Shown here one piece after another: positions 3,864 to 55,600 of a stretch of 64,000 nucleotides of DNA (within the stretch, counting starts at the first letter, position 1; the number at the start of each line of letters is the position of its first letter). This stretch comes from an uncultured bacterium (GTDB lineage Bacteria; Myxococcota_A; CAZTSL01). Position numbers and translations under genes: made by a program. The stretch covers positions 8,933 to 72,932 of the forward strand of contig CAZTSL010000001.1 in the NCBI GenBank assembly GCA_964616915.1, written 5' to 3'. The notes under the pieces were generated by a model. That model saw only the letters and a list, made by a program, of their open reading frames with translations. It searched no databases and had not been told where the DNA came from.

Positions 3864-6239
3864 ATGATCGTCCTGGAAGTACTCAAGTGGCTGGTCGAAC
3901 CGGGGCCGGGGGAAGGGCTCACGAGGAACTTCATCCTGGCCATCGCCCTCTATCTCCTCCTCTCGAGCCTCTGGTTCTTCTGGAAGACCGATTCCCTTCG
4001 CCAGCGCGTCGAGCGGCTCCTTCGGAACGCGGAGGGAGAGGAAGGGGCAAGGGGGAAGGGTGACCTCGATCGGGAATACACACCGCCAGAGATCGACGAG
4101 TTCCTCGACAGATTCGCTACGGCCTTCGAGACGGCAGGCAACCCTCTCACTCCCCTGTGGCGGGAATACACCGCAACCTTCCTTCGAGAAGCGCGGAAAA
4201 CCACGCACGATGCCCGAAACTACTTCGATGTGACGCGTCTTCTCAGCGTCTCCATGGACCTGCGCTACTGGTTCGCGCTCCCCGGCCTCTTCGTGGGGGT
4301 CGGCGTCCTGGGGACCTTCGTCGGTCTGACCTGGGGGCTCTCCGACTTCCAAGTCGGCAACGACGTCATGATCCGGGAGAGCATCGGCAATCTTCTGCGT
4401 GGGATGAAGACCGCCTTCGGGACCTCGATTGCCGGCATGCTCTCCTCGATCCTCTTCTCCCTCCTCGAAAAGACGATGGTCCGGAGGGTCGAAAGGAGGA
4501 GCCAGGCCCTCGTCGAGCGCTTGAACGCAACCTTCCTCCTCACCGAGGAGGCCGCTGCGGCCTGGCAGGAGGAACGCCTCGCGGACCGGATCGATACGAT
4601 CCTCTCCCGCCACCTCTCCGTGACCGCCCGAACGAAGGGTGGAGAGGAGATCGAGCTTCCGATCGGCAGGATCCTCCGGAAACTCCTCGACGAGGCGGAA
4701 GAGGTGCGAGCCGCGATCAAGAGCTTCTCCACCGATCTTGCCGAGGGGATCATGCTCTCTACCGAGACGATCCATGCACTGGGAGATCGGCTCCGGGATG
4801 CCGTCGGAGAAGCTTTTGGCGAATCGTTCGGTCCCCTCTTCGAAGAGATGAAGCGGATCCTCGCAAAGATCGAAGAAACCGGCATGCAGAGCAACGCCCA
4901 CCTCGTCGAACGGCTCGAAAGGGAACTCTCGAACATCCTCCAGGAGATCGGGAAGGGGGTCGAGGAGATCTTCTCGACGAGGATGGCCGAATCGCTCGAA
5001 AGGATCGCTCACATCGTCGAGACCTCCACCGGCCAGCTCGATCGCCTCCCGCAGCGGGTCGATGAGACGCTCCAGGAGATGACGGCCGAACGCAAACGGG
5101 CCCATGCGCTCTTCTCCGAGACGGTCCACTCGATGCAGACGGCCAACGAGCAGCAGATCGCCACCACCCGCTCGCTGCTCAAAGGCGTCTTCTCCGCCAC
5201 CCGCCAGGAACTCCAGCGACAGACGGAGACCTTCGCCGGGATGGCCAAGGGCTTCGAGACGACCGCGCAACAACGACTCCAGCGCCAGGAGGAGGCCCTC
5301 TCCGCTTTCCTCGCCCGCTTCACCGAAGAGGTCGAGGAGGCCCGTCGGGCGCAACAGCTCCTCTTCGAGGAGGGGACGAAACGGTTCCAGACAGGGATGC
5401 GTGAGAGCTTCCAGAACTTCGAGGAGGGGATCGAGGAGATCCTCTCGGAGCGCATGACGGAACCCCTCGAAAAGATCGTCGCGGCCGCGGAGCGCTCGAC
5501 ACACTTGCTCGAACGGCTCCCCGCGCAACTGCAAGCGTCCCAGGAGACGATCGCGGCCCACATCGAGGGGCTGCGAGAGAGTGGCGAGATCTTCGAACGA
5601 CGGCTTCATGAAAGCGCCGAGCGCCTCGAAGGGACACTCACCCGCTTCACCGAACGGACGGAGGAGGAGATCGAACGGGCCGAAGGGATGCACGCGCGTC
5701 TCCTTGCCGGAATGCGCGCCGAGATCGAGGCCGTCCGCGCGACGCTCGCGCAGCACCGGGAACATCTCGAATCCGCTGGAAAGCTGACCGCAGGAATGAA
5801 CGACATCCTCTCCGGGTTGCACGAAGGCATCGGCACCCTCGACCGATGCGCAACGGCCTTCTCCTCCCATGCCACGACCGTCGAGGAGAGCGGCAACCGG
5901 CTCATCGACACGCTCGAGACCTTCCAGAAGGGAAGCGTCCAGGCCACAGAGCGGCTCCATGACGTTCTGGCGAAGATCGAGCAATCCCTCGAAGACACGA
6001 CGAAACTCCACGAACGCGTGACCCACGACTTCTTCACCATCCGGGAGGGACTCTCCGGCATCTTCGAGGAGATCGAGCAGGGGCTCGGCCGTTACCAGGA
6101 GACGACCCGGGATTCGCTCAACCAGTACCTCCGCGACTTTGCGGAGAACCTTTCCCAGGCGGCCGACAGACTCAAGAGCATGGTCGAAGAATTGAGCGAA
6201 CTGCTGGAAGATGTCGTCGAAATGAAGGAGCAGCGCTGA
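3864..6239 (+). CDS. zorA: Zorya anti-phage defence protein ZorA (MotA/ExbB/TolQ-like proton-channel subunit with long coiled-coil tail)
   Basis: The ATG at 3864 is preceded by GGAGGAGG. The N-terminal ~230 aa have three TM helices with MotA/TolQ/ExbB-type motifs (LPGLFVGVGVLGTFVGLTWGL; TAFGTSIAGMLSSILFSLLEK). They are followed by a ~560-aa tail rich in E/R/L/A heptad-like sequence. The stop overlaps the zorB start (ATGA). The reading frame 5' of 3864 overlaps wecB and is rejected. Confidence 0.8.
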   Translation: MIVLEVLKWLVEPGPGEGLTRNFILAIALYLLLSSLWFFWKTDSLRQRVERLLRNAEGEEGARGKGDLDREYTPPEIDEFLDRFATAFETAGNPLTPLWREYTATFLREARKTTHDARNYFDVTRLLSVSMDLRYWFALPGLFVGVGVLGTFVGLTWGLSDFQVGNDVMIRESIGNLLRGMKTAFGTSIAGMLSSILFSLLEKTMVRRVERRSQALVERLNATFLLTEEAAAAWQEERLADRIDTILSRHLSVTARTKGGEEIELPIGRILRKLLDEAEEVRAAIKSFSTDLAEGIMLSTETIHALGDRLRDAVGEAFGESFGPLFEEMKRILAKIEETGMQSNAHLVERLERELSNILQEIGKGVEEIFSTRMAESLERIAHIVETSTGQLDRLPQRVDETLQEMTAERKRAHALFSETVHSMQTANEQQIATTRSLLKGVFSATRQELQRQTETFAGMAKGFETTAQQRLQRQEEALSAFLARFTEEVEEARRAQQLLFEEGTKRFQTGMRESFQNFEEGIEEILSERMTEPLEKIVAAAERSTHLLERLPAQLQASQETIAAHIEGLRESGEIFERRLHESAERLEGTLTRFTERTEEEIERAEGMHARLLAGMRAEIEAVRATLAQHREHLESAGKLTAGMNDILSGLHEGIGTLDRCATAFSSHATTVEESGNRLIDTLETFQKGSVQATERLHDVLAKIEQSLEDTTKLHERVTHDFFTIREGLSGIFEEIEQGLGRYQETTRDSLNQYLRDFAENLSQAADRLKSMVEELSELLEDVVEMKEQR

Positions 6240-7075
6240 TGCGTCCACCGTTCCTTCGGGCCGTACCGACGGAGGAGAACCCCTTCGCGCTTTCGGTCGG
6301 GGATCTCATGGCCGCGCTCCTCCTCATCTTCATCCTCCTCCTCTCGAGCACGCTGCTGCGCCTCGAAAAGGAGTTCCAGCGGAAACGGGAGGAGACCGAG
6401 GCGGTGAAGCGGGCCGCGGAGCAGATCCAGGCGATCGCACAGACCTACAAGCGGCTCAAGGAGGATCTCTACGAGGATCTCTACCGCGAGTTCGCCAAGG
6501 ATCTCGAGCGGTGGGACGCGGTGATCGACCAGAAGACGCTCTCTGTGCGCTTCCGGGAGCCGGAGGTCCTCTTCGGGGTCGGGGACGCGCGCCTCAAACC
6601 GAGGTTCAAGGAGATCCTTCGTGATTTCTTTCCCCGTTACATCGGGATCCTCCTCCAGGAGGCGTACCGCGACAATATCGAGGAGATCCGGATCGAGGGG
6701 CATACCTCGAGCGAGTGGAACCGCCATGTCTCCTCCGATCTCGCCTACATCTACAACATGCGCCTCTCCCAGGATCGAACCCGCAGCGTCCTCTCCTTCT
6801 GCCTCGACCTCCTCTCCGGCGCGCGACGGGAATGGGCGAGAAGCAAGATCACGGCCAACGGCCTCTCCTTCAGCAAACGGATCCTCCGGGATGGCGTGGA
6901 GGACAAGAAGGCCTCCCGCCGGGTCGAGTTCCGGGTGCGCACCGACGCGGAACGGCAAATCGGCGAGATCCTGGGGATCGGTTTCCCCTCGGGAAAGACC
7001 CACGGCATCCCCCCTGGCCGCGGGGGGGGAGAGGGCCAGCGCGGGAATGCCGAAACGAGGAGAACGCAACCTTGA
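6239..7075 (+). CDS. zorB: Zorya protein ZorB (MotB-like TM anchor plus OmpA-like peptidoglycan-binding domain)
   Basis: 278 aa. It has an N-terminal TM helice (LMAALLLIFILLLSSTLL) and a conserved Asp in the plug region (SVGDLMA). The OmpA-like core carries IRIEGHTSSEW ... NMRLSQDRTRSVLSF (GHTD..G / N..LS..RA..V signature). It is translationally coupled to zorA. Confidence 0.8.
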   Translation: MRPPFLRAVPTEENPFALSVGDLMAALLLIFILLLSSTLLRLEKEFQRKREETEAVKRAAEQIQAIAQTYKRLKEDLYEDLYREFAKDLERWDAVIDQKTLSVRFREPEVLFGVGDARLKPRFKEILRDFFPRYIGILLQEAYRDNIEEIRIEGHTSSEWNRHVSSDLAYIYNMRLSQDRTRSVLSFCLDLLSGARREWARSKITANGLSFSKRILRDGVEDKKASRRVEFRVRTDAERQIGEILGIGFPSGKTHGIPPGRGGGEGQRGNAETRRTQP

Positions 7076-8529
7076 AGCCGGGCAAAGAACGTGATCGGGT
7101 CGAGGCGGCGAAACGATCGCTCTCCTTCTCCTTCTCGGCGGCATCCTTCCCCCTTGCCGCCCGGGGGATGATCGAGAAGGAGACCGAACGGGTGCTCGCC
7201 GAGCAGAAGCGAAGACTCGTGCGAATCAGCGGTGATGCCCGGGATCTCGGTCGCCCCGACGCCTCCCGGATGGCGGAGACCTGCCGGCGTTTCTTCCTCC
7301 ATGCTCCCCTGGGGGAGGCGGCGATCTTTCGGGCGTTCGATTCCCGGCGTCAGGTGAGGCGGTTGGCCTGGGCGCTCCCCTACCGGCTCGGCGAGAAACC
7401 TTCGATCGCCGAGTCCCCCCATCTTGCGCTCGCCCTCTCCCTGATCGAACGCCACTGGCGGAATCGCCTGATCGCTCCGCTCCGCTTTGCCCTTCTGCGC
7501 TACTGGCGCTCCCTCCCCCGGGAGAACGGAGCGCGGCTGCGCGCCCTCCTGCACGCCAGGGGGAGGAGGAAGCTGGGGGAACGGATCGTCTTCTTCACCG
7601 CCGAGGCGGGCCCTGAGCTGGCGGCCCGTTTCCTCCTCGAGAAGGAGGTTCCCCTCGATCGGGGGATGGAATACCTCGACATCTCCGATTCCCTGCGGGA
7701 CAGTGAGTACTTCCAGCACTTCCTCTTCGCCTATACGGAGAGGGCGATGAAGGGAAAGAACCCCCTGCGGCACGCAGGCGAGATCCTCGACTTCCTCGAA
7801 GGGGTGAAGAAGAGAGAAGTCGTCCGTCGCGGCATTGCGCCCCTCGTCGTGGGGTGTGAAGCGCTTCCCCCCCTTGCCCCCCTGAAAGGGCGGATCGAAC
7901 GCCTCTTCCGCAGCGAGATCGGCGACCCGATCGATCCGGTCGCCTGCCGCCCCTGGCCGGACGCCACGCCGGCGGAGCGCAAGAGGTGGGAGGAGGCCTG
8001 CCGCATCGTCAAGGGGTGGATCACCCAGAACTTCATCGAGCGCTTCTTCGACAAGATCGTGGTCGATGCGGATCGAAAGGCCTTCTGGCTGCGCTACATC
8101 GATGCCATCGAGCGCTTCAAGCTCTACGTGAACGAGGGAGAACGGTATCATCTCCAACACGATCCCACCCTTGCTCCTTACTTCGAGTCCCGCGTCGGCA
8201 GGCTCGCGGGGAGGCAGCAGAACGCGATCCTGATCCAGATCGATGACTACCTCTTCGTCGAGTTCGCCAAGACAGGGGACGCCTGTTACGTCTATTTCAT
8301 CCCGAACGGCAACGCTCCTTCCCTGGAGAAGGAAACATACTCGATCCATGCCCTCAAATCCCGCAGACTCATGGACCAGGGCAACGCTTTCCTCGATCCG
8401 GCATGCTGGGGGATCAACGGCCTGGAAGGGAAGGTGAATCATCATTCTGGATGGCAATGGCGGTTCGATCGGTGGTTCCGGGAATACCTCGGGATCGAGC
8501 CCCGGCAGAGGGGAAAGGCGAGACGCTGA
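7072..8529 (+). CDS. zorC: Candidate Zorya protein ZorC (third gene of the operon; start uncertain: TTG 7072 or ATG 7168)
   Basis: A single long ORF in operon position 3, coupled to the zorB stop (TTGA overlap at 7072-7075) with an alternative ATG at 7168. It is an arginine-rich 453-485-aa protein with no motif I recognise directly. The assignment is by synteny with type I Zorya, where ZorC carries an EH-signature domain. Confidence 0.5.
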   Translation: MKPGKERDRVEAAKRSLSFSFSAASFPLAARGMIEKETERVLAEQKRRLVRISGDARDLGRPDASRMAETCRRFFLHAPLGEAAIFRAFDSRRQVRRLAWALPYRLGEKPSIAESPHLALALSLIERHWRNRLIAPLRFALLRYWRSLPRENGARLRALLHARGRRKLGERIVFFTAEAGPELAARFLLEKEVPLDRGMEYLDISDSLRDSEYFQHFLFAYTERAMKGKNPLRHAGEILDFLEGVKKREVVRRGIAPLVVGCEALPPLAPLKGRIERLFRSEIGDPIDPVACRPWPDATPAERKRWEEACRIVKGWITQNFIERFFDKIVVDADRKAFWLRYIDAIERFKLYVNEGERYHLQHDPTLAPYFESRVGRLAGRQQNAILIQIDDYLFVEFAKTGDACYVYFIPNGNAPSLEKETYSIHALKSRRLMDQGNAFLDPACWGINGLEGKVNHHSGWQWRFDRWFREYLGIEPRQRGKARR

Positions 8530-8552
8530 GGGGGAGAGAGGAGTCCATCGGA

Positions 8553-11500
8553 ATGATCGCGTTCAAGGTCGCCGAAGATGGCGTGCTCTTCCGCCGATCG
8601 GCGGAGGGAACCGGGGGAGAAGGGGAAGCCGCCCATCTCCTCGAGGAATGGCTCGACAATGGCCTGGCCGTTTCGGTGCCGCAAGGGGTGAAGGTCCCTC
8701 ACGAGGTCGTTGCCGATCTCGACAGGGAGGAGGGGCAGATCGTGGGACTCCCCGATCCCTACCCCTTCGAGATCGCACTCTTCCCGAACGAGGCGATCAT
8801 CCCCGATCCGTCGTTCCGCTACCGGCTCGAATTCCTCCCCCACCCTCTGGCCCCACCCTTTGCCGTTGCGCGGGTGGGGTGTTTCATCACGATCGACGGG
8901 GCGGTGACCTATCGCCTCACGCCTCCTCAGTTCCGGCTCTGCGAGGCGGTGGCGGCCTTCGATGCCCTCCCCGAGGGGGCGCGCACGATCGAGTGCCACT
9001 GGTCGAGATTCGCCGAGATCCGCGCGCTGGCCAGGGCGGGGGAGGTGTACCTCGATCCGTACCTGGCCAACGAAGAGGTCGTGCTTCCGGAACGGATCCG
9101 CCTCAAGATCGAACGGCAGGGGGAAGGGACGATCACCCTCCACCCGGAGATCGAGGGGATCGACCAGCCTCAGTTCGAAAAGCGTTTCCGGTCTCCGCGG
9201 ATCCGGAAGGTCTATTCGCTCGAGTCTCCGGAGGGGAAGCGCCGGCGGATCGTCTTCTCCCCCGCGCAGCAGCGTGAACTCGAAAAGATCAAGAAGTACC
9301 GGCGGCTCGAAGGGGAGATGCGCGAGCGTCTCCTCGAAGCGCCGCAGGAGATCTTCGACCCCGATCTGATCGATCTCGACGACTTCAGCGAACGCGTCGT
9401 TCGTATCGGCCTCTACAAGCCCCGGGTCTACCCCTTCGTCTCCCCCTACAAGTCGCAGTGGATTCCGGGATCGATCGTGGAAACCTCCCCCACGCAACGG
9501 CTCAGGATCCCCTTCCCCACCCGGGAGGCGGTCGAACGCTTCGCAGCGGCCTACGAGGAAGCGAGAGCCAAGGGGGCGCGCGCCATGCGCTGGGAGGGAG
9601 AGGAGATTCCGCTCCAGGCCGCCGGATCGGCGCTTCGCCATGCCCGGCGGCAATGGGAGCAACCCGATCGCCCCATAAACCAGGGGGAGGGGGGGGAACC
9701 GGTCCTCATCATCAAGGAAAACATCGAGACCCTCGAACATGCGGAGGCGCAGCCCCGCGCTCCCCTCGCGCCCGATCGTTTCGAGCATCGCTACCAGGCC
9801 ATTCCCGGCCTGAAGGGGGGGGTGGAGATCCTTCCTCACCAGCGGGAGGGGATCGCCTGGCTCCAGAGCCTCCACCTCGACGGATACCGTGGGGCGCTCC
9901 TTGCCGACGACATGGGCCTTGGCAAGACCTTGCAGATCCTCGCCTTCCTCTCCTGGCACCGGGCGAAGCGAAACGTGGAAGGGAAACCCTACCTCCTCGT
10001 GGCCCCCGTCTCCCTCCTCGAAAGCTGGGAGGAAGAGTACGGGAAGTTCTGGGCGCAACGGATGCCGGTCGTGCGGGAGTACGGGGGCGCACACAACCTG
10101 GACGACGTGGGGAAGGGGGACGCTGGGATCGTGCTCACCACCTACGAAACGCTGCGCCGGCGGCAATTCGAGTTCTGCCGCATCGCATGGAGCGTGGTCG
10201 TTCTCGACGAGGCCCAGAAGATCAAGACCCCGGGAACCCTCGTCACGAACGCGGTGAAAGCGCTCAAGGCCGATTTCAAGATCGCAGCCACCGGCACCCC
10301 GGTGGAGAACACCCTCGTCGATCTCTGGTCGATCTGCGACTTCATCGTGCCGGGTCTCCTGGGGAGTGCCCGATCGTTTGCGCAGAGCTACCAGACCCCC
10401 CTCAAGAAGGAGGAGACCGATCTCGAGCAGCTCGGGGAACGGCTCCGCGCGCAGATCGGATGCCACATCAAGCGGCGTCTCAAGGAGGACGTACTCGAAG
10501 CCCTGCCCCCAAAGCGGATCGTCTGCCGCAAGCGGCGCATGCCCCCCGAACAGGAGGCCCGCTACCTGGCCGCCCTGCGGGGGGGGGTGGAGGAAAGGGC
10601 GCCGGGACGCAACGCAATGCTGAGATGCCTCTTCGAGATCCGCGATATCAGCGATCATCCCGCTCTCCCCGACCGGGAGATCGATGCCATTCCGATCGAT
10701 CGCCTCCTGGCCACCTCCGCGAAGCTCGCAGAGACCCACCGGTGCCTCGAGGAGATTCGAGAGCGAGGGGAAAAGGTGATCCTCTTCTCCGATCGGCGCA
10801 AGACGCAGCGTCTCCTGGCCCGGCTCCTGCGCGAGTGCTTCGGGGTCAACCCGAGCATCATCCACGGCCAGACCCCGGTGCATGCGACCCGCAGCAAGGA
10901 GAGCCGCCGGGAAGCGGTGGAGCGGTTCCAGGCGCAACCCGGCTTCCACGCGATCGTCATCTCTCCGCTGGCCGCGGGGGTGGGTCTCAACATCACCGCC
11001 GCGAACCATGTGATCCACTACACCCGTTCCTGGAATCCGGCCAGGGAGGAGCAGGCCACGGACCGGGTGTACCGGATCGGACAGAGACGCACGGTCTACG
11101 TGCATCTTCCCATGGCGGTCTCGGACGATTTCAAGAGCTTCGATCTCGTGATCCACGAATTGCTCGAACGGAAGCGCGCTCTTGCGCGTGCCTCCCTCTT
11201 CCCCACGGAGCAGGCGGAGATCTCTCCCCTGGAACTCTTCGAGCATCTCCATGAGCATCTTCCGGGCTCCTCCCACCCCCTTGCAGCCGAGTCTCCCCTT
11301 GGGATCGAGGATCTCGACACCTTGGAGCCCTTCTGCTTCGAGGCTGCCGTGGCGGCGCTCTGGGATGCGGCGGGGTATGCGGTGATCCTCACGCCGAGAC
11401 GGGGGGACCATGGCGCGGACGTCGTTGCGCGCAGAGGGGAGCGGGGATTCCTCCTCCAGGTGAAGTCGGGCCGCAGTTCCCTTGGCCCCCATTCCGTCAT

Positions 11501-11720
11501 CGGAGAGATCCTGCGGGCGAAGTCTTTCTACGGCGAACGTTTCGGGTGCGACTTTTCGCTCGGGATCGTCACGAACCGTCCCCTCACCCCCCAGGCGGAG
11601 GCGGAGAGTGCCATCAACGGCATCGAGATCTACGGCCGCGATTGGCTCGCCGAGCAGATCACCCGCCATCCCCTCACCCTCTCCCAGATCCACGCCTGGG
11701 AAGCACGCCGGGAGCAATGA
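8553..11720 (+). CDS. zorD: Zorya protein ZorD-like: SNF2-family helicase (SNF2_N + Helicase_C) fused to a C-terminal Mrr-like PD-(D/E)xK nuclease domain
   Basis: The ATG at 8553 lies 8 nt after GGAGAGAGGAG and 24 nt after the zorC stop. SNF2 motifs: LADDMGLGKTLQ (I), VVLDEAQKIK (II, DEAQ), AATGTPVEN (III). Helicase_C motifs: IISPLAAGVGLNITAANHVIHY, SWNPAREEQATDRVYRIGQ. The C-terminal ~130 aa carry GDHGADVV...GFLLQVKSG, matching the Mrr catalytic D-x(n)-(E/Q)xK core. Confidence 0.8.
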   Translation: MIAFKVAEDGVLFRRSAEGTGGEGEAAHLLEEWLDNGLAVSVPQGVKVPHEVVADLDREEGQIVGLPDPYPFEIALFPNEAIIPDPSFRYRLEFLPHPLAPPFAVARVGCFITIDGAVTYRLTPPQFRLCEAVAAFDALPEGARTIECHWSRFAEIRALARAGEVYLDPYLANEEVVLPERIRLKIERQGEGTITLHPEIEGIDQPQFEKRFRSPRIRKVYSLESPEGKRRRIVFSPAQQRELEKIKKYRRLEGEMRERLLEAPQEIFDPDLIDLDDFSERVVRIGLYKPRVYPFVSPYKSQWIPGSIVETSPTQRLRIPFPTREAVERFAAAYEEARAKGARAMRWEGEEIPLQAAGSALRHARRQWEQPDRPINQGEGGEPVLIIKENIETLEHAEAQPRAPLAPDRFEHRYQAIPGLKGGVEILPHQREGIAWLQSLHLDGYRGALLADDMGLGKTLQILAFLSWHRAKRNVEGKPYLLVAPVSLLESWEEEYGKFWAQRMPVVREYGGAHNLDDVGKGDAGIVLTTYETLRRRQFEFCRIAWSVVVLDEAQKIKTPGTLVTNAVKALKADFKIAATGTPVENTLVDLWSICDFIVPGLLGSARSFAQSYQTPLKKEETDLEQLGERLRAQIGCHIKRRLKEDVLEALPPKRIVCRKRRMPPEQEARYLAALRGGVEERAPGRNAMLRCLFEIRDISDHPALPDREIDAIPIDRLLATSAKLAETHRCLEEIRERGEKVILFSDRRKTQRLLARLLRECFGVNPSIIHGQTPVHATRSKESRREAVERFQAQPGFHAIVISPLAAGVGLNITAANHVIHYTRSWNPAREEQATDRVYRIGQRRTVYVHLPMAVSDDFKSFDLVIHELLERKRALARASLFPTEQAEISPLELFEHLHEHLPGSSHPLAAESPLGIEDLDTLEPFCFEAAVAALWDAAGYAVILTPRRGDHGADVVARRGERGFLLQVKSGRSSLGPHSVIGEILRAKSFYGERFGCDFSLGIVTNRPLTPQAEAESAINGIEIYGRDWLAEQITRHPLTLSQIHAWEARREQ

Positions 11721-11891
11721 TGGAGGCTCGGGATGCCCGCCGCAATCGATCGATGAAAGACCCCCTTTCCCCCACTCGGGGGCGATCGGCTTTCCATCAT
11801 GACAAGAAATTTTTCGATAGGCGTGAACGGTTACGGCGGTGAAGGAGGGAGCGCCGAAGGGATCGGATACCGTCTCGAAACGTCGGGAGGA

Positions 11892-13559
11892 TCAGAGGGC
11901 TTCCTTCCCCGAGGTGAGTGTGAACCAGCGATCGATGAGATCCCGATATTCGTCGCCGAGCTGGGAGGTATATCCGGTGAAGTTGACCGAGAGATCCGCC
12001 CGCGCATCCTCGGAGGAAACCGCCCCCTGAATGAGGAGAGGCAGGAGCGTCACGAGATGGGCGTCCCTTACATTCCCGACATTCCGGTCCAGAATCTCGG
12101 AGACCTTCTTCTCGACGACCTCCCGCTTCGCCTCCTTCGTCTCGGGATCCTTGTACTGGATCTCGAGCGTGAAGGTCGCCTCCGGGTCGAGGGGGGTCTG
12201 TGGATCACAGAGGGTGAACCCCTCGAAGAAGAACTGGGAGGTGTTGAACGAGAAGTTCGTCGTGGCGACCTCCGATTCGTTCGTCGAGGATTCCTCGGAG
12301 GCCGTGATCCGGCGGGTGAGCATCTCCGGGAAGTCGAGGCGGAAGCGCACGTCCCTGGCCGCAACGCTCAGCAGCGCGATGAAGCGGTCCTTGAAGGCAC
12401 GCTTCGCGTCGAAGGGGGTGATGACCGCGAAGTAGGCTCCCTTCCCCGCCTCGGTCAACTCGTCGAGGAACGCCTCCTGGAAGTCTGCGCCGAAACCGAT
12501 GCCGGAGAAGTAGATCCCCTCCCGCTCGTTGATCGAGGTCGCCTGCGCGATCACGCTGGGATTGACCTCACCCCGATTGGCGTAGGCATCGGTCAGGAGG
12601 ATGACGCGGTTCATCTTCGCCGGATCGTACTGGCGCCACGCGACTTCGTAGCCGAGTTCGATCCCCCGGTTCAGGTTCGTACTCCCGATCGTGTGGAGCG
12701 CCTCGATATACTGGAGATAGCGCTCCTCGCCGTCGGTGTAGGCGTATCCCTCGAAGACGACGTCGGCGTCGTCGGAGAACTCCACGAGATTGACGACGTC
12801 GCCCGGCTTGAGGCTGCCGTACATCACGGAGAGCCCGAACTTGGCCGCATCGAGGAGGGTCTTGATCTGGCTCTCCCCCGAATCGTAGAGGAGTTCCGTA
12901 TCCATCGAGCCGGAGACGTCCACGATCAGGGTGACGACGGCGTTGCGCCGTTCCTCCCGCGTGATCGTCGGCGCCGAGAGGTGAATCCCGAGATCGTAGA
13001 CCGTGCGTTTCGGATCGGTGGGGTCCTTGAGATCCCAGAGGCCGACGGAGACATCGAAGAGACCGATCTTCTCCGCGCCCTCCTGGGAGAAGTGTTCATA
13101 GTTGAGGAACTCCCAGGGTCGTGCCCACCCCTTCGAGGGCACCCGCCCCGACTGGAGGGCGGACTTCGTCAGTTCGACGCCGGCGGTGCTGGCCGAATCG
13201 TCGTAGGAGAAATAGAAGAACTTCGGTTCTTCCGAACAGACGAGTTCCGCGGAAGATTCTGCCGATGCCTCCTCTGTCTCCGATACGGAGAATTCTCCCG
13301 ACTCGGCTTCCGCACCCGTTTCCGACCCGGTTGCTGCGCCCGATTCCCCATCGTCGAAGACGGCGTCGGAGCCCTGTCCTTCCCCGTCTCCCGCCGGTGC
13401 GGCTGCGGGCTCGTTTCCGCCGCCGTTGCTCTGGATGCCTGCCTCCGTCTTGTTCGTATCTTCCCCCTCTCCGCCACAGGCCACGGCAACGAGGGGAAGG
13501 AGCAGGGCGATCCAGGAGATGATGTGGATGTGGGTCTTTCCCACCGCGCTTCGCTTCAT
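11892..13559 (-). CDS. Secreted VWA (von Willebrand factor A) domain lipoprotein
   Basis: Internal Met start MKRSAVGK... followed by a lipobox (LLPLVAVAC|GG). It has a long acidic G/E/S/A-rich linker and a VWA domain with the MIDAS motif (VTLIVDVSGSM ... VILLTDAYANRG). It is convergent with zorD. Confidence 0.7.
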   Translation of the reverse strand: MKRSAVGKTHIHIISWIALLLPLVAVACGGEGEDTNKTEAGIQSNGGGNEPAAAPAGDGEGQGSDAVFDDGESGAATGSETGAEAESGEFSVSETEEASAESSAELVCSEEPKFFYFSYDDSASTAGVELTKSALQSGRVPSKGWARPWEFLNYEHFSQEGAEKIGLFDVSVGLWDLKDPTDPKRTVYDLGIHLSAPTITREERRNAVVTLIVDVSGSMDTELLYDSGESQIKTLLDAAKFGLSVMYGSLKPGDVVNLVEFSDDADVVFEGYAYTDGEERYLQYIEALHTIGSTNLNRGIELGYEVAWRQYDPAKMNRVILLTDAYANRGEVNPSVIAQATSINEREGIYFSGIGFGADFQEAFLDELTEAGKGAYFAVITPFDAKRAFKDRFIALLSVAARDVRFRLDFPEMLTRRITASEESSTNESEVATTNFSFNTSQFFFEGFTLCDPQTPLDPEATFTLEIQYKDPETKEAKREVVEKKVSEILDRNVGNVRDAHLVTLLPLLIQGAVSSEDARADLSVNFTGYTSQLGDEYRDLIDRWFTLTSGKEAL

Positions 13560-13844
13560 CGTCTTCCTCCTTTGTCTCTTCCCGGATGGTGGCGATCGTG
13601 TTTCAAAGGTGAAGTGCAAAGTTTGGGCCATAGGGCATCCCCTTCCCGCCCCAGGGAGCAGGGATGCGCCATACCCGCCACGATGCATCGGTTGCCGGCG
13701 GGGAAATCAGAGGAGAATCCTCCTCCCCTGGGGGGCAGGGGAGGAGAGATTCGAGCATGGAATTCGGGACGGACGATCAGAAAATCGAGGGCGTCGTCTC
13801 ACTTTTTCGGAGGGTTCCCCTTTCTCGTTCTCTTCGTAACGCGC

Positions 13845-14738
13845 TCACCTCGTCTCATGCCCCCCCGGCTCCGGGGGGGGCGCCGAGATCCCGAGCCCGA
13901 TCCCGAGGAGGGTGAGGATGCCCCCGGCAATGACGCGGAAGGCCGGAACTTCTCCCAGCACGATCCATCCGATGAGGGTGGCCAGGAACGGCTCGCTCAA
14001 GATCCAGAGGCCGAGTTCCACCGGTCCCTTGAAGCGCAGGAGGTAATTGAGTCCGCCATGGCCAAGAAGGGTGGGGAAGAACGCCAGTGCCGCACAGGCG
14101 AACCAGGTCACCCGGTCGAACCCCCGCCAGGGCGTCCCCATCTTCGCGACCACAAGGGCGGTGACGACCGCAGCGGTGAGATAGACCGTGGCGACGTAGG
14201 CGAAGAAACCACTCTCTCCGCGCGCGCGGCGTCCGGAGAAGACATAGCCCACCCAGCAGAAGGCTCCAAGGAGCGCCAGGAGATCCCCGGAAAGGTGATG
14301 CGCGCCCCCTCCCCCGCCCGTCACCACGATGCCGATCCCGAGGAAGGCAACGACGAGTCCGATCCACTGCCGCCGCTCGACCCGTTCCCCCAGGAGGGGG
14401 CGCGAAAGGAGGGCAGACCAGAGCGTGCCGGTGGTCACCAACAGCGTGGCACTGGCAATCGAGGTTCGCTGGACCGCCGTAATCCAGGAGATGAGGTGGA
14501 ACGCGAGGAAGAGACCGGCCCATCCCCCGCGCCACAGCGGCCACCGTTCCCGCCGCAGGAACGCGGCAGCGGAAAAGTAGGGGAGCGCAAAGAGGAGCCG
14601 CCACAAGACGATCGCCAACGCCGGGGCACGTGCCACCCGAACGAGGGGCGCACTCACGGAGAGTGCAAGGAGCGCCGCGCAAAGCACGCATCCGATCCAT
14701 ATGCGCGTGGCGCGCCCCTCGTCAGGCTCACCCGACAT
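13845..14738 (-). CDS. EamA/DMT-family (drug/metabolite exporter) membrane transporter
   Basis: 297 aa with ~10 TM helices and the two-repeat EamA architecture. Confidence 0.7.
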   Translation of the reverse strand: MSGEPDEGRATRIWIGCVLCAALLALSVSAPLVRVARAPALAIVLWRLLFALPYFSAAAFLRRERWPLWRGGWAGLFLAFHLISWITAVQRTSIASATLLVTTGTLWSALLSRPLLGERVERRQWIGLVVAFLGIGIVVTGGGGGAHHLSGDLLALLGAFCWVGYVFSGRRARGESGFFAYVATVYLTAAVVTALVVAKMGTPWRGFDRVTWFACAALAFFPTLLGHGGLNYLLRFKGPVELGLWILSEPFLATLIGWIVLGEVPAFRVIAGGILTLLGIGLGISAPPPEPGGHETR

Positions 14739-14792
14739 GTGTCGGACCCCTCCGATCCCGGACGAAACACCGCCAGCAGCCGGGGAAACGCT

Positions 14793-15227
14793 TCATGAAG
14801 GGAAACTGACGGTCTGAAGCCAGAAGTCCCGCAATTTTCCCACCATGTCTTCGAATTCGGCGCGCTCCGCGGGTCTGACGATACAGGCGTTGGCACCCCG
14901 GTGGTAAGCGGCCAGGATCGCCGAGGGGGCATCGTGATGGATCAGGACGATCACCGGAACCCTCCGGAGCCTCTCATCCCCTTTGATCGCCGTGAGGATT
15001 CCTTCTTCCTCTCCGGGGGTGGCAGGGGCGAGGACGACGAGATCGGGGCGTGGGGTTTCACCCGGACTGCCTCCCAGGATCTCGATGGCCTCGCTTTCAT
15101 CGGTTGCAGTCCGGGTCCGCACTCCCCTCCTCCCTGCACTCAGAGTCTCTGAAATCCTCCGGAGGATTTCCGCATCCCCTCCGACCAGGAGGATTTCGAT
15201 CGGTCTGCTGAGAATCGTCATGAACAC
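14793..15227 (-). CDS. Atypical (pseudo-)receiver domain protein, CheY-like fold
   Basis: 144 aa with an overall REC-domain pattern (ILLVGGD..., PDLVVLA, VPVIVLIHHD, ACIVRP). The acidic pocket and the phospho-acceptor Asp are replaced (GG for DD; A for D; R for K). Confidence 0.5.
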   Translation of the reverse strand: MFMTILSRPIEILLVGGDAEILRRISETLSAGRRGVRTRTATDESEAIEILGGSPGETPRPDLVVLAPATPGEEEGILTAIKGDERLRRVPVIVLIHHDAPSAILAAYHRGANACIVRPAERAEFEDMVGKLRDFWLQTVSFPS

Positions 15228-24410: not shown

Positions 24411-24815
<405 letters not shown>

Positions 24816-24957: not shown

Positions 24958-25473
24958 TCATTCCTCTTCGGTGATCACTTCTCCCCAGATGTTCTCGATC
25001 CGAACGATCTCCCATTCGTGCGTTCGATCCCTCCATTGGACATCGACGATCTCGCCGCAGGGCTGGCCGAGGAGGGCCTGGGCGATGGGGGAATGGAAGG
25101 AGATCCCATTGGGGCAGGCTTCCATCTCGAGGATGTCGGCGAGCGAGATGAGAAAGGATCTCTCCATCTCCGTTTCGCAATCGATCACCGTCACGGTGGA
25201 GAAGAGCGTCACGCGGTCCCGCGGGAAGGTTTCCAGGTCGATCCTGTTGACCATCTCGAATTTCTCGTAGAGTTGGCGTAAGCGTCCTTGAAGGAAACTC
25301 TGGCGTTGTTTGGCCGCATCGTATTCGGCGTTTTCGCTCAGGTCGCCATGTTCGGCCGCGGTGTGGAGCGCCTTGGGGATCTCGACATGGAGTTCGTACT
25401 CCATCTTCTCGATATCCTCCCGGAGTTTTCGCCGGACGGCTTCGAGCTTCTGTTTGATCTCCTCCATCTTCAT
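24958..25473 (-). CDS. greA: Transcription elongation factor GreA
   Basis: 171 aa. The N-terminal coiled coil carries the conserved acidic tip (HGDLSENAEYDAAK) and a C-terminal FKBP-like domain. Confidence 0.9.
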   Translation of the reverse strand: MKMEEIKQKLEAVRRKLREDIEKMEYELHVEIPKALHTAAEHGDLSENAEYDAAKQRQSFLQGRLRQLYEKFEMVNRIDLETFPRDRVTLFSTVTVIDCETEMERSFLISLADILEMEACPNGISFHSPIAQALLGQPCGEIVDVQWRDRTHEWEIVRIENIWGEVITEEE

Positions 25474-25518
25474 CCTTTCCTGGTTGCCAAATCCTTTCGG
25501 GTCGTCTTTTTCCCCGTG

Positions 25519-27966
25519 CTATTTCCTGGACGGTTTCTTTTCGATCTGCGCGACGATTCCTGCTTCGAGCAGGTCGATGACGACTTCGTAGTGCTGCCCT
25601 GCCCGGGTGGTGAAGGGGATCTTCTTACGTTTGCCCGGATCGAGCGTGGAGACGAGGAGGAAGTCGTGGCGGCCGTGAGGGATCTCCTTCGCTACGATCG
25701 GCGTCGTTCCAACGAAGCGATCATCGACATAGACCTCGACGGCTTCATCCGATTTCACCCGCACGGAGAGCAAGGCGGGAAAACGCCTTCGAACGGTTCG
25801 ATAACGGTGCGCTTCGACCCGGATCCGCTCCGTTCGATGGATGCCCAGATCCCGCCTGCTGAAGGTGACGTCGTGCTCCCCCGCGGGCACCTTGAAGAAG
25901 GTCTTCGGGGAGGGGCGCCGATGGATCTTTCCATCGAGATGGACATCGACGGGAGGATCGATGTCGAAGGCGACGAAACCGTACGCCACTTCGAGACGGG
26001 CCAGGAGTTTCCGCACGAGCCCGGCTTCGATCGGCATTTCGGTCTTCCATTCCTCGAAGCCCTCCTTTCGCAGGACGATCTCATAGGTCTTTCCCCCCGG
26101 CAGTCGGACTTCCGCAGGGGTTTTCTGCTCCAGGGGCTGTCCATCGATGAAGATCCGGCACCCCTCCGGAATGGAGGAGAGGAGCACACCGCCCATCTCG
26201 CCGAGTTCCTTCGATCTTTCGAGTTGCACGGTGATGGCAGTCTCCTCCCCTGCCGAGAGGACGAACGATTTTTTCCAGGGCACGAAGCCCGTTTTGTGGA
26301 TCTCGATCTCGTGCGGGACGCATGCCTGGATCGAGGAGAGGCGAAGGGGGGTACGTGCAGGAACGGGATCTCCGAAGGCATTCGTCGATGTCTGGGTCTT
26401 GCCGTCGAAGCTCACCTCCGCGCCGGGGGGATCGGTGTAGATGTCGAGTTGCGCCATACGGGGGGAGAGTCGGAGATCCCGACGCCCTCCCTCCTTCCCT
26501 CCCCCTGGGAGGGAAAGGGTGGCGGTTTCGTAGCAGGGATGGACGAAGTGGAGTTCCGCCTCCTTTCGCGGTCCGATCCCCTCGATGACGGCGATTCCCG
26601 CTTCATCCGTGGTGGCGATCTGCTTGCCATCGAGGAGCACCGCGACGTCGGCCACACCGGTACGCACGACCCACGGTTCCGTTCCGGCCGGTCGCAAGAG
26701 ATGGTAGATCCCCACCCCTCCGGCGATCGCGCCGGCAAAGATGAGGGTGCCCAGGAGAAGGTTCCGCCCCTCTCCTGCGGTCCACCGCCCGAGCCTTCCG
26801 ACCGCACGCTTCAGCGTTCCGGCCCAGGCGAGCGGGAGCATCCGATCGGTCGCTTCCGCCCTCTTTGGCAGGGGGGGGGGGGGGGCCTCGGCCGGAGGGA
26901 GATCCGAACCGACGAGACGTTCCGACGACGCATTCCCCCCACCCGACGAGGCCGCCGATGGGGACGTGGCTGCCGCGGCCGCGGGCGCGCTCTCCTCCGC
27001 TGCCTGGCTCAAGAGCTTGATCGCTTCCTTCTCCGCGATCTTCTCCTCGAACATGTCGTGGAGGAACGTATCGAGATCGATCGTGGTCGGGCGCCGATGT
27101 CGTTCCTGCAGGTAGGCTTCGAGTTCGCGGCGAAAAACGCGGGCGGAAGGGAAACGCGCCGCAGGATCCTTGGCCAACGCACGGGCCACGATCGCCTCGA
27201 ATCGCTCGTCCACCTCGACCCCGAATTTCCGCATCGGTGGCACGGGCGCGCTCTTGATCGCCTCGAGGGTCAGATAGTCGCTACGGCGGTCGAAGGGACG
27301 CACGCCGGTGACCATCTCGTAGAGCACGACCCCGAGCGAGAAGATGTCGGAGCGTTTGTCGAGCGCGTTGCTCAAGACCTGCTCCGGGGACATGTAGGAA
27401 TATTTCCCCTTGAGCATTCCCCCCTTCGTCTTCTGGTCGTCGGCCCGTTTCGCAATCCCGAAATCGGTGATCTTGACCTCCCCATTGTAGGAGATCAGGA
27501 TGTTCTGGGGGGAGATGTCCCGGTGGATGATGTTGAGCGGTTCCCCGGAGAGGTCGTCCCGTTTCGTATGCGCATAATCGAGTCCCTTGCAGACGTCGAT
27601 TCCGATCTTCGCCGCGAAGAGATCGGGAAGACGCGCTTTGCGCCGGGCGAGTTCATCGATGACCGTGGCAAGGTTCTCCCCCTGCACGTACTCCATCTCG
27701 ATGAAGTAGGTCTCCTCGATGAGGCCGAAATCGTAGACCCGTACGATATTGGGGTGATTCAGCTGGGCGGCCAACTGCGCTTCGTTGAAGAACATCTCGG
27801 TAAAGCGTTGGCTCGAACCGAGATAGGGGAGGATGACCTTGATCGCCACCGGCATGCTGAAGCCGCGGGGGCCTCGTTTCTGGGCCAGATAGACCTCGCC
27901 CATTCCCCCCACGGCGATCCGTTTGAGCAGCACGTACTTGCCGAATGGCTTCCCCGGTTCCATCAA
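25519..27966 (-). CDS. Serine/threonine protein kinase with proline-rich linker, TM segment and C-terminal PEGA-domain repeats
   Basis: Hanks kinase motifs: GGMGEVY (G-loop), AIK, HRDISPQNILI, DFG, SPE. A TM helix (LLGTLIFAGAIAGGVGIYHLL) is followed by three or more PEGA-like repeats (PPGAEVSFDGK, PEGCRIFIDGQ, VDVHLDGK). Confidence 0.85.
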   Translation of the reverse strand: MMEPGKPFGKYVLLKRIAVGGMGEVYLAQKRGPRGFSMPVAIKVILPYLGSSQRFTEMFFNEAQLAAQLNHPNIVRVYDFGLIEETYFIEMEYVQGENLATVIDELARRKARLPDLFAAKIGIDVCKGLDYAHTKRDDLSGEPLNIIHRDISPQNILISYNGEVKITDFGIAKRADDQKTKGGMLKGKYSYMSPEQVLSNALDKRSDIFSLGVVLYEMVTGVRPFDRRSDYLTLEAIKSAPVPPMRKFGVEVDERFEAIVARALAKDPAARFPSARVFRRELEAYLQERHRRPTTIDLDTFLHDMFEEKIAEKEAIKLLSQAAEESAPAAAAATSPSAASSGGGNASSERLVGSDLPPAEAPPPPLPKRAEATDRMLPLAWAGTLKRAVGRLGRWTAGEGRNLLLGTLIFAGAIAGGVGIYHLLRPAGTEPWVVRTGVADVAVLLDGKQIATTDEAGIAVIEGIGPRKEAELHFVHPCYETATLSLPGGGKEGGRRDLRLSPRMAQLDIYTDPPGAEVSFDGKTQTSTNAFGDPVPARTPLRLSSIQACVPHEIEIHKTGFVPWKKSFVLSAGEETAITVQLERSKELGEMGGVLLSSIPEGCRIFIDGQPLEQKTPAEVRLPGGKTYEIVLRKEGFEEWKTEMPIEAGLVRKLLARLEVAYGFVAFDIDPPVDVHLDGKIHRRPSPKTFFKVPAGEHDVTFSRRDLGIHRTERIRVEAHRYRTVRRRFPALLSVRVKSDEAVEVYVDDRFVGTTPIVAKEIPHGRHDFLLVSTLDPGKRKKIPFTTRAGQHYEVVIDLLEAGIVAQIEKKPSRK

Positions 27967-28035
27967 ACGATCCCGGTCGAAGTGCGGGGATTCGAAGGGG
28001 AGATCCGACCCGCAAGTCCGGTGATGGTTGACGGC

Positions 28036-28326
28036 TCACTCCACGAATTGATAGACGACCTCGGTTTTCCGCACCATCCCATACGTCGATCGGAGATATC
28101 TTTCAATGTAGTCCGCATCATGGGTCAAGGCTTCGATCTCGGCTTCCAATCTTCGGTTCGTTGCCTCCAATCGAGCGATCTTCTCCTCGAGTTCGGTATG
28201 TTTCTGGCGTAGCCGCATCCCTTCGTGCAAGCCATGCCTTCCGTAGATCGTGTAGGCGATCATGGCGCCGACGAAGAGGAATACCACGAGGATGGTGACC
28301 GAATCGTTGTGTTCTCGCTTCCGCAT
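28036..28326 (-). CDS. Septum-formation initiator (FtsB/DivIC-like) protein
   Basis: Internal start MRKREHN... gives ~97 aa. It has a single TM helix followed by a leucine-zipper-like coiled coil (LRQKHTELEEKIARLEATNRRLEAEIEAL). Confidence 0.6.
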   Translation of the reverse strand: MRKREHNDSVTILVVFLFVGAMIAYTIYGRHGLHEGMRLRQKHTELEEKIARLEATNRRLEAEIEALTHDADYIERYLRSTYGMVRKTEVVYQFVE

Positions 28327-52697: not shown

Positions 52698-55600
52698 TCA
52701 CTTCAGGCCATATCGGTCGAGCTTCTCGTAGAGCGTCCGCCGGCCGATCCCGAGCAATTTTGCGGCACGGACCTTGTTGCCGGCGACCTCCTCGAGGATC
52801 TGTTCGATCACGCGCTTTTCGTAACGCTCCACGATCTCCTTGAGGGGTTTGGGCTGGTGAAGGGGGAAAGCGAGGGGATCCTCCTCCCGGACCGGCCGGG
52901 TGCCGGCGCGAATGGCCGGAGAGATATCCTCGATCGTGACCCGGCCATCGCACAGGACGACGATCCGCTCGATCTCATGCTCGAGTTCCCGCACGTTGCC
53001 CGGCCAGTCGTAGGCAAGGAGGAGGCGGCGCGCCGCCGGATCGATCTCGATCTTCTTGCCCGGCATCTTCTGGCGCTTGCGTTCGAGAAAATGTTCGATG
53101 AGGAGCGGGATGTCCTCCCGTCGCTCCCGCAGGGGGGGAAGCTCGATCGTGACGACATCGAGACGGTAGAAAAGATCCTCGCGAAAACGCCCCTCCTCGA
53201 TGAGCCTGCGGAGGTTTCGGTTCGTGGCGGAGATGAGGCGCACATCGACCCGGATGAGATCCTTCCCCCCCACCCGCCGGAAGGCCTGTTCCTCGATGAC
53301 GCGAAGGAGCTTGGCCTGCATGTTGAGGCTCATGTCGCCGATCTCGTCGAGGAAGATCGTCCCCCGGTGCGCAAGCTCGAAGAGGCCCCGCTTCTCCCGG
53401 ACCGCGCCGGTGAAGGCCCCCTTGACATGGCCGAAGAGCGCGGCCTCGAGCAGGGTCTCGGGGATGGCTGCGCAGTTCTCGCTCACGAAGGGGTGGGCCT
53501 TGCGAGGACCGTTGAAGTGGATCGCACGGGCCACCAGATCCTTCCCCGTCCCCGATTCCCCCTGGATGAGCACCGGCACCTCGCTCTCCACGACCCGGTC
53601 GAGCAACTGGAAGACACGCTGCATCGCGTCGCTTCGGCCGATGATGTTCGCGTAGTTGTACTTCGTCTCCATGTCGGCACGGTTGCGCTGGAGGAGTTCC
53701 GTGACGACCTCGAGCTGCTCGCTCTGGCGTTCGAGCCGGTCCTCCAGGGAACGGTTGAGTTCCTCGATCCGCCGGTAGGAACGTTCCAACTCCCGCTGCT
53801 TGGCGATGTTCTCCTCGATGAGTCGGGCCTTCTCGATGGCAATGGCCGCCTGGTCACCGAAGGCGTGGAGCAACTCGAGGTCCTGCGGCGTGAAGGAGCC
53901 CCCCTGGAAGCGGTTGTCGAGGTAGATCGTACCGATCGTGGCCCCAGAGACCTTGAGGGGAACGCAGAGGATCGAGCGGAGCTTGAGGTCGTGCACGCTG
54001 AGGTACCCGGCGAAGCGTTCGTCGTTGCGCGCATCGATGGCGATGATCGCCTCCCCTCGCTCCACGACCTCCTTGGCGATCGAATGGCTCACCTTGAACT
54101 TCGACTTGTGGATGTTCTCCCGATCGATGTTGCGGGCAACACGGACCTTCATCTCCTCCCCCTCCAGCAGGATGAGAAAGCCCCGTTCCGCATGGGTCAG
54201 TTCGATCGCCGTATCCATGATGAACTCGAGCAGGTGGGAGAGATCGTGCTGGGAGTTGAGCGATTTGTTGATCTCGAGGAGATGGCGGAGCCGTTTGTCC
54301 CCGGCGTCTTCTTGCGGGGGAACGGAAGGGGGAGGGGTGCCTTCCCCCGCCATCCTTCGGCGAAGCTCCTCCATATCCGCCAGGAGCTGGTCGTAACCTT
54401 TCATCTTCATGAAATCTCTCCGGAATTCCTGTGGGATCTGCTCGATCACCCGGCGCTGGAGTTCGACGACGGCATGGAAGTGTTCGAGCGCCGATTCGTC
54501 GTCTCCCCCCTGGAGGGCCAGACGCGCCAGGAGGAGATGAAGATCCCAGAGGAGTTCGGGACGGTCGATCTCTCTCGACCTCCGGCGGGCTGGTTCGAGG
54601 GTTTGCCAGGCGCTTGCCAGATCCCCCCCCCGCCGGAAGACCTCTCCGAGGAGGACGCGCCACTCGATCTCGAGATCGAGGCTCTCGAGTTCCGAGGCGA
54701 GATCACCGGCGATATCGAGGTAGAAGCGGGCTTCGGAGAGATCGTCGCCGGCAAGGGCCGACTCCGCCAGACGCAGATTCGTCCGGCAGAGTTCATGACG
54801 GCTCTGGAGTCTTCCGAAGAGCGCGAGGGCCCGAGTCAGGTGGGCCGCGGCTTCCCCTCGCTGCCCGGCATGGATCCCCACGGCCCCGAGGAGGAGATGG
54901 TTGTAGCCGGTGACGAGTTCCATCCGATGCCGGCAACAGAGTTCGAGGGAACGGTCGAGATACCGGCGCGCCTGCGCCAGCCGTCCCAACGTGAGGTGGA
55001 TGTTCCCCAGATTGCTCGATACCCGCAGGAGAATCTGGTCGTCCGCGATTCGTTCGGCCAGCCGAAACGCCTGCTCGTAGTAACGGATCGCCTCGCCGTA
55101 GGCACTGCGCTCATGGGCGATCGTGCCAAGGTTCATCGCATAGGTCGCGGCACCGTGAAGATCCCCCAGTTCGTGGGCGATGGCGAAGGAACCGCGGTAG
55201 GCCTCGACCGCGGCGTCGTAGCGACCACGCCGTTGCAAGAGCATCCCGAGGCTGTTGAGCATCCGGGCATGCAGATGGCGATCCCCCCTGGCATGGCGCA
55301 ACCCCTGCCGGTAGTAGGTCTCGGCCGTATCGTAGTGACCGAGATAGAAATGGGAGAGGCCCAGGACATCCTCGATACGGGGCAGAAGCCCCGTGGGGGG
55401 GGCTAGGTGAAGCGCTTCCTCCCCAGCGCGGATCGCACCGGCGTAGTCCCCCTGGAGGATCCGGATCCGTCCGAGAACCCAGAGGATGCGGCAGAGCGCC
55501 TCCTGATCGTCGCGTTTCCGGGCGTTGGCCTGCGCCGATTCGAGGATCGCCGCGGCCCGGTCGTGCTCCCCAAGACGCAACAAGGCTTCTCCCATCGAGA

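Follow-up and report, generated by a model that had tools for sequence, protein, structure and literature searches.

The only ZorD protein studied both structurally and biochemically is that of Escherichia coli NCTC 9026 (8qy7/8qyc; PMC11946911). In E. coli, ZorA5B2 is a proton-driven motor, and upon phage entry its ZorA tail recruits the DNA-binding protein ZorC together with ZorD, a nuclease effector under autoinhibition (PMC11946911). The protein consists of an N-terminal domain (residues 1-502) and a Snf2 C-terminal domain (503-1080), and Mrr is never mentioned for it (PMC11946911). ATP-dependent DNA degradation is reported for the C-terminal half alone and is lost in ATPase-site mutants (PMC11946911). 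Neither a nuclease fold of the classical kind nor a nuclease active site has been identified in it. Described here is a type I Zorya locus from a 64,000-nucleotide stretch of an uncultured bacterium (contig CAZTSL010000001.1, assembly GCA_964616915.1; "the window" below). Its zorD gene (8553-11720, plus strand; 1055 amino acids and stop codon; gene intact) encodes a C-terminal Mrr_cat PD-(D/E)xK nuclease domain (11313-11654, plus strand; residues 921-1034).

The architecture is not new; it is known and already annotated. In PADLOC the description of ZorD reads "SWI2/SNF2 helicase, Mrr-like nuclease"; three of the eight PADLOC ZorD1 models (PDLC00631, PDLC00628 and PDLC00630) cover the C-terminal domain. 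A 2025 Zorya paper credits the prior, original Zorya work with a Mrr-like nuclease domain in ZorD (PMC11890865). Mrr-bearing ZorD proteins, for example that of Polaromonas naphthalenivorans CJ2 plasmid pPNAP01 (WP_011797920.1), share with the present protein the end-to-end architecture, the operon and the catalytic signature; an experimentally characterised member of this subfamily was not found in the literature searched.

HsdR of Type I restriction, with a PD-(D/E)xK nuclease and an SF2 motor, follows the same principle of translocase-nuclease coupling. In HmaA (Snf2 helicase with a NOV_C nuclease-like domain; PMC11232893) a translocase is likewise covalently coupled to a nuclease against phage DNA; its resemblance to the present ZorD is confined to the C-terminal lobe of the helicase (PADLOC, 1.2e-19). 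HmaA and HsdR differ from ZorD in nuclease family, domain order and partner proteins. The catalytic-domain fold and the D...(Q/E)xK motif are shared with Mrr, MspJI, AspBHI and AF1548, which possess an N-terminal modified-DNA reader and no motor, whereas the present ZorD has a Snf2 translocase and belongs to a membrane-sensor-coupled system.

The protein is assigned as ZorD of type I Zorya from its position in a zorABCD operon and from the match of its full-length model to E. coli ZorD 8qy7, the best solved structure (Foldseek, 1.2e-61 over 960 columns, versus about 1e-29 for other Snf2 proteins). PADLOC ZorD1 model PDLC00631 spans residues 4-1046 at 1023 bits. The NCBIfam ZorD equivalog NF041790, which stops at the Snf2 core and represents the enterobacterial Mrr-less form, gives 490.8 bits, below its cut-off of 1500. 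The low equivalog score beside the full-length PADLOC match places the protein in a different subfamily, not as an equivalog of the E. coli protein. Common to both proteins are the position after zorA, zorB and zorC, a homologous N-terminal domain and Snf2 core (phmmer, 3.1e-121), GxGKT and DEAQ motifs, and the presumed role of a DNA-degrading effector recruited by ZorAB. They differ in sequence (about 30% identity) and in about 165 extra residues of the present protein, made up of the linker and Mrr_cat. The closest complete homologue in the databases searched is about 51% identical. The sole 100%-identical entry (P0001) is a partial protein of 690 amino acids on a 2-kb contig, and the exact 1055-residue ZorD has no record in the contig index. 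By these comparisons the present ZorD is a rather divergent member of a known architecture.

Operon, domain architecture, fold and active-site conservation were established in the present analysis. This ZorD, with its intact Mrr domain, is most probably (roughly 0.65) the effector of a complete type I Zorya operon, which would be recruited, translocate on DNA and cut it with the tethered Mrr domain.

Nuclease domain and active site

A Mrr_cat-type nuclease tail after the SNF2/Helicase_C core had been proposed in a sequence-only reading of this DNA, and it is borne out by profile and fold. Mrr_cat (PF04471) matches the full ZorD protein with E 7.5e-10 (39.4 bits, model positions 1-113 of 115) and the last 166 amino acids scanned alone with 3.1e-11 (43.9 bits); the Pfam gathering cut-off is 21 bits. 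The AlphaFold2 model of the last 166 residues (49 homologues) has a predicted local distance difference test score (pLDDT) of 91.3, a predicted template modelling score (pTM) of 0.82 and the order alpha-beta-beta-beta-alpha-beta of the PD-(D/E)xK fold, with core elements, in domain numbering, at H37-50, E54-57, E68-72, E75-82, H90-108 and E112-118. Solved structures closest to the domain by Foldseek are MspJI (7.1e-6), AF1548 (1y88; 7.6e-6) and AspBHI (7.9e-5), then NucS/EndoMS and Hjc resolvases. By sequence, phmmer with the domain alone gave only noise against solved structures, and a homologue search with the 166-residue C-terminal domain alone gave nothing at E <= 1e-3. A profile of 30 ZorD Mrr domains reaches AF1548 (E 0.0021); in that alignment D956 pairs with the Asp of AF1548, and Q969-x-K971 falls on the E-C-K.

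The predicted active site comprises E930 (codon 11340-11342) on helix 1, D952 (11406-11408) and D956 (11418-11420) at strand 2 in the motif G-D-x-G-x-D, and Q969-V-K971 (Q969 11457-11459, K971 11463-11465) on strand 3, all codons read on the plus strand. Of the catalytic motif first proposed, D...D/E-x-K, the Asp and the xK pattern are present and the middle Asp/Glu is not, its place being taken by Gln. The motif of the Mrr family is D...(Q/E)xK, the Mrr/MspJI variant, and the activity of MspJI is abolished by D334A or Q355A (PMC2938202). Given this motif and the effect of Q355A, the Gln at the middle position is read as a documented Mrr variant and no defect. The domain is real and, it appears, an active nuclease.

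Conservation was scored in an alignment of the query and 119 close homologues, 117 of these sequences carrying the Mrr domain. F929, E930, T947, D952, G954, D956 and K971 are present in 117/117 of the carriers and Q969 in 116/117. Neither of the two outcomes that the first reading had named as refuting, the lack of a significant Mrr_cat or PD-(D/E)xK match and the loss of the putative catalytic residues in orthologues, was observed. A wider census was taken from an exhaustive search of 50%-identity cluster representatives, which returned 14,764 proteins at E <= 1e-30; the best 149 of them were scored by a hidden Markov model (HMM) built from ZorD Mrr domains. Among the 100 Mrr-bearing representatives (the query being additional) the E-D-D-Q-K signature is kept by 82, and the classical ExK is found in two. 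Near-invariance in close orthologues and retention in 82/100 carriers indicate that the signature is under purifying selection for catalysis.

PF04471 is present in 116/120 of the closest homologues (90% clustering); their sources include complete genomes and, from a bacterium in culture, a sequenced plasmid. The alternatives initially offered, the canonical ZorD nuclease or a lineage-specific variant, both fall short: the architecture differs from that of the studied, Mrr-less E. coli ZorD, and Mrr-bearing ZorD is widespread and already annotated in PADLOC.

Proposed role of the Mrr domain in Zorya

In the proposed mechanism, membrane-bound ZorA5B2 would sense phage entry and recruit ZorC and ZorD through the ZorA tail. 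The Snf2 motor of ZorD would engage the invading DNA and track along it. The Mrr domain, on a flexible tether of about 30 residues, would hydrolyse the DNA backbone, with E930, D956 and Q969-x-K971 holding a metal ion. A motor that tracks while Mrr cuts would resemble the motor-nuclease fusions HsdR and HmaA. The sequence-only reading had named the helicase-nuclease fusion the DNA-degrading effector of the system; the fusion is intact and lies within zorABCD, and we infer that the Mrr domain is the cleavage site in this ZorD subgroup.

Several observations weigh against this role. E. coli ZorD (1080 residues) defends without any Mrr domain; aligned with the present protein it is homologous up to query residue 888 (chain residue 1068), 12 residues before its own end, and has no Mrr tail. 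Its C-terminal half is reported to degrade DNA on its own, so the family does not strictly depend on a dedicated nuclease fold. The Mrr domain is missing from 49 of the 149 representatives in the census. One Mrr-less protein (P0014), 51% identical to the present ZorD, nevertheless has a normal zorABCD operon around its gene. Among the 100 carriers, about 12 retain the fold but no longer have the catalytic Lys, Gln or Glu. The literature searched yielded no biochemical study of a ZorD Mrr domain.

Most of the 49 Mrr-less representatives end 4-23 residues past the core, as E. coli ZorD does. The NCBI-annotated ZorD of a Klebsiella plasmid is also Mrr-less. For P0014, a nuclease encoded by a separate downstream gene was considered and rejected, the gap of 215 nt after its zorD being too small; the next gene encodes a product of 575 amino acids with no Pfam match on record, apparently membrane-associated from its sequence. 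The Mrr-bearing proteins P0002, P0048 and that of pPNAP01 all lie within zorABCD operons. When presence and absence of Mrr are mapped on a rough neighbour-joining tree built from 147 Snf2 core sequences (no bootstrap), at least 20 gains or losses are required. Searches with the ZorD protein elsewhere added little: tblastn of plasmids gave mostly generic Snf2 helicases and two annotated comparators, and a scan of genome contigs gave only unrelated Snf2 helicases (24-40% identity over the core) and no true ZorD orthologues.

Other C-terminal and N-terminal arrangements were observed. P0162, P0170, P0191 and P0224 possess C-terminal tails of 147-178 residues in the Mrr position, which match neither the ZorD-Mrr HMM nor any Pfam family and may represent effector modules of another kind or strongly diverged ones. 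The Mrr-less P0125 and P0128 have kinase domains at the N-terminus, accompanied or not by a NERD domain. The same N-terminal NERD and Ser/Thr kinase domains, with no C-terminal Mrr, occur in a ZorD-like Snf2 protein (49% identical over the core) from Logan contig SRR27900773 (1-12129). Its gene is preceded by an OmpA/ZorB-like gene, a gene for a 745-residue protein (no Pfam match on record) and a gene for an 830-residue WD40 protein; by gene content the locus resembles a Zorya-like variant whose accessory genes differ. In a 6.1-Mb genome (L039, 11736-12636), a small HNH endonuclease gene (185 amino acids) and an open reading frame (ORF) of 117 amino acids follow directly after the zorD of a Mrr-bearing zorABCD locus, and a gene of 347 amino acids without Pfam match on record precedes zorA.

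The Mrr fold is kept with the catalytic Glu, Gln or Lys gone in P0188, P0216, P0186, P0229, P0206, P0207, P0155 and P0205 (signatures such as G-S-D-K-N and T-N-D-C-M). P0188, with the signature G-S-D-K-N, still matches Pfam Mrr_cat at 1.8e-10. These degenerate domains suggest that in some lineages Mrr has a non-catalytic role or is decaying.

The main rival reading, an accessory function of Mrr (DNA or DNA-end binding, oligomerisation or autoinhibition) with destruction of DNA performed by the Snf2 C-terminal half, is rather unlikely for the present protein. It would accord with the activity of E. coli ZorD in the absence of the domain, with the end of the NCBI equivalog model at the Snf2 core, with the many gains or losses on the core-domain tree and with the roughly 12% of carriers that are degenerate at catalytic residues. 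Against it, the present protein retains all catalytic residues, as do more than 80% of carriers; among them are Gln and Lys, whose sole function is catalysis. In addition, the E. coli Snf2 core has no mapped nuclease active site, the mutations that abolish its activity being in the ATPase site.

Cleavage by Mrr could also be selective, ZorD acting as a Type IV-like modification-dependent restriction enzyme on modified phage DNA. MspJI and AspBHI, the closest solved structures together with AF1548, are modification-dependent, and some databases name the orthologues "restriction endonuclease". The specificity of Mrr/MspJI enzymes resides in a separate N-terminal recognition domain (PMC2938202). 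Such a domain is absent from ZorD, which makes this reading very improbable: the Pfam scan gave SNF2, Helicase_C, ResIII and Mrr_cat only, and the N-terminal half aligns to the N-terminal domain of E. coli ZorD, so that only the catalytic module is shared. That the fusion arose by chimeric assembly or read-through, or that the tail is in decay and without function, is scarcely credible, even though the window is probably from a metagenome-assembled genome and its sole identical entry is the partial protein mentioned above, because the ORF is uninterrupted, the catalytic residues are intact and the architecture recurs in 116/120 closest homologues from many independent assemblies, which excludes an assembly artefact.

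The zorD gene, the zorABCD operon and its surroundings

The mechanical zorD ORF opens at 8403 on the plus strand, is uninterrupted and ends with the stop codon TGA at 11718-11720. The start codon is likely ATG 8553 (MIAFKV..., 1055 amino acids), with a ribosome-binding site GAGAGGAG upstream and a distance of 24 nt from the zorC stop. The peptide quoted in the first reading, ...AAVAALWDAAGYAVILTPRRGDHGADVVARRGERGFLLQVKSGRSS..., is present as an exact copy in the plus-strand ORF ending at 11720, and the residue numbers given there for the domain (about 920-1055) agree with a 1055-residue protein from ATG 8553. The interval 11320-11720 is the 3' end of this ORF and covers the Mrr_cat domain, the C-terminal helix and the stop codon. 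A minus-strand ORF of 1091 amino acids (8442-11717) lies opposite zorD, and a plus-strand ORF of 999 amino acids (11799-14798) lies opposite the genes for a von Willebrand factor A (vWA) domain protein and an EamA transporter. Both have low-complexity, Arg/Gly/Pro-rich translations and are probable high-GC artefacts, not genes.

The ZorD-specific N-terminal domain (8553-9812, plus strand; residues about 1-420) is well predicted in the full-length model and aligns with that of E. coli ZorD; by phmmer, residues 62-247 and 270-512 align to residues 87-274 and 419-669 of 8qy7. The Snf2-family ATPase core (9813-11222, plus strand; residues about 421-890) is recognised by Pfam as SNF2-rel_dom (429-703, 4.6e-52) and Helicase_C (732-843, 1.9e-17). 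Its motifs are intact: Walker A G455-L-G-K458-T, DEAQ box D552-E-A-Q555 and motif VI Q834...R838...R841-I-G-Q844. G455, G457, K458, D552, E553, Q555, Q834, R838 and R841 are invariant in a 52-sequence alignment.

The flexible linker (11223-11312, plus strand; residues about 891-920) lies between the Snf2 core and the nuclease domain; nowhere in the orthologue alignment is conservation lower or are indels more frequent. In the full-length model, confidence is low at 902-917, with pLDDT below 50 at 907-912 and flanking blocks at 59-72. The remark that the nuclease module is visibly modular agrees with this low-confidence linker and with the patchy occurrence of the domain across the family. The nuclease domain is capped by C-terminal helices (11655-11717, plus strand; residues 1035-1055), modelled at 1029-1038 and 1043-1054; PDLC00631 covers the protein to residue 1046. 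The full-length model has pLDDT 84.7 and pTM 0.52, at which the relative placement of domains is unreliable.

The genes zorA, zorB, zorC and zorD are co-directional over 3864-11720 with small overlaps or gaps and are followed by the convergent vWA-domain gene. The product of zorA (3864-6239, plus strand; 791 amino acids) has a membrane part resembling MotA/ExbB and, after it, a long coiled-coil tail. The zorA ORF opens at 3615 (874 amino acids), and its likely start is ATG 3864; the match to PADLOC ZorA1 PDLC00601 (1.2e-34) begins at residue 93 of the 874-residue ORF. NCBIfam ZorA subfamily models also match, as does, weakly, Pfam MotA_ExbB at 229-298. ZorA is long (791 residues, or 874 from the ORF start) in comparison with 569-620 residues in the closest homologous operons (L035, L038 and L039), so its cytoplasmic tail would be unusually long. 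The coiled-coil tail yields spurious Apolipoprotein-like matches.

The product of zorB (6239-7075, plus strand; 278 amino acids) is MotB-like with an OmpA peptidoglycan-binding domain (Pfam OmpA at 111-221, MotB_plug weak; PADLOC ZorB2 6e-79, ZorB1 1e-61). ZorB favours type II models (PADLOC ZorB2 263 versus ZorB1 206 bits; NCBIfam 185 versus 45 bits) and sits within a type I operon, with ZorC and ZorD present. This likeness may reflect mosaic evolution of the ZorAB module. The zorC gene (7168-8529, plus strand) encodes an EH-signature protein (Pfam EH_Signature PF15611, 1e-24; PADLOC ZorC1 models up to 1.4e-16; NCBIfam ZorC, 3.3e-16); position 7168 is that of the first ATG past zorB, and the mechanical ORF runs from 6715.

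The neighbouring genes are housekeeping ones and encode a pyridoxal phosphate-dependent enzyme, a UDP-N-acetylglucosamine 2-epimerase, an EamA transporter and an acyl-CoA synthetase. Throughout the zorABCD region the GC content stays level. Farther on in the window are an RNase P RNA gene (24433-24809) and two genes for tRNA-Met. From these features the locus is a chromosomal, stand-alone type I Zorya and is not situated in an obvious defence island.

Elsewhere in the window, a plus-strand ORF of 974 amino acids (25288-28212) is located a short distance downstream from the gene for RNase P RNA, gives no Pfam match at E <= 1e-5 and has an ORF of 815 amino acids antisense to it. A minus-strand gene (52698-57872) encodes a 1723-residue regulator with Ser/Thr kinase, AAA_16, TPR, GAF, sigma-54 activator AAA+ and Fis-type HTH domains.

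Significance for the Zorya family

As an ordinary, complete type I Zorya system the locus changes little. What goes beyond routine annotation is the contrast with the E. coli protein, the patchy distribution of the domain and the existence of carriers with a dead active site. The one ZorD studied structurally and biochemically lacks a classical nuclease domain, and about two-thirds of the nearest representatives carry it.

It is possible, though tentative, that type I Zorya falls into two mechanistic classes, one cutting with a dedicated, tethered Mrr domain driven by the Snf2 motor, to which this locus would belong, and an E. coli-like class cutting in another way. That Mrr was repeatedly lost from the E. 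coli-like class, or retained there in a catalytically dead form, is an equally tentative suggestion. Repeated loss or inactivation of Mrr raises the question of what replaces the domain in those lineages. If Mrr-bearing ZorD is ancestral, the ATP-dependent "nuclease" of the E. coli Snf2 half needs a separate explanation, and the Mrr-bearing proteins would be the better model of phage DNA cleavage by Zorya. Taken together, the contrast with E. coli, the patchiness and the dead-site subset make Mrr-bearing ZorD proteins a reasonable choice for tracing the chemistry by which Zorya cleaves DNA.

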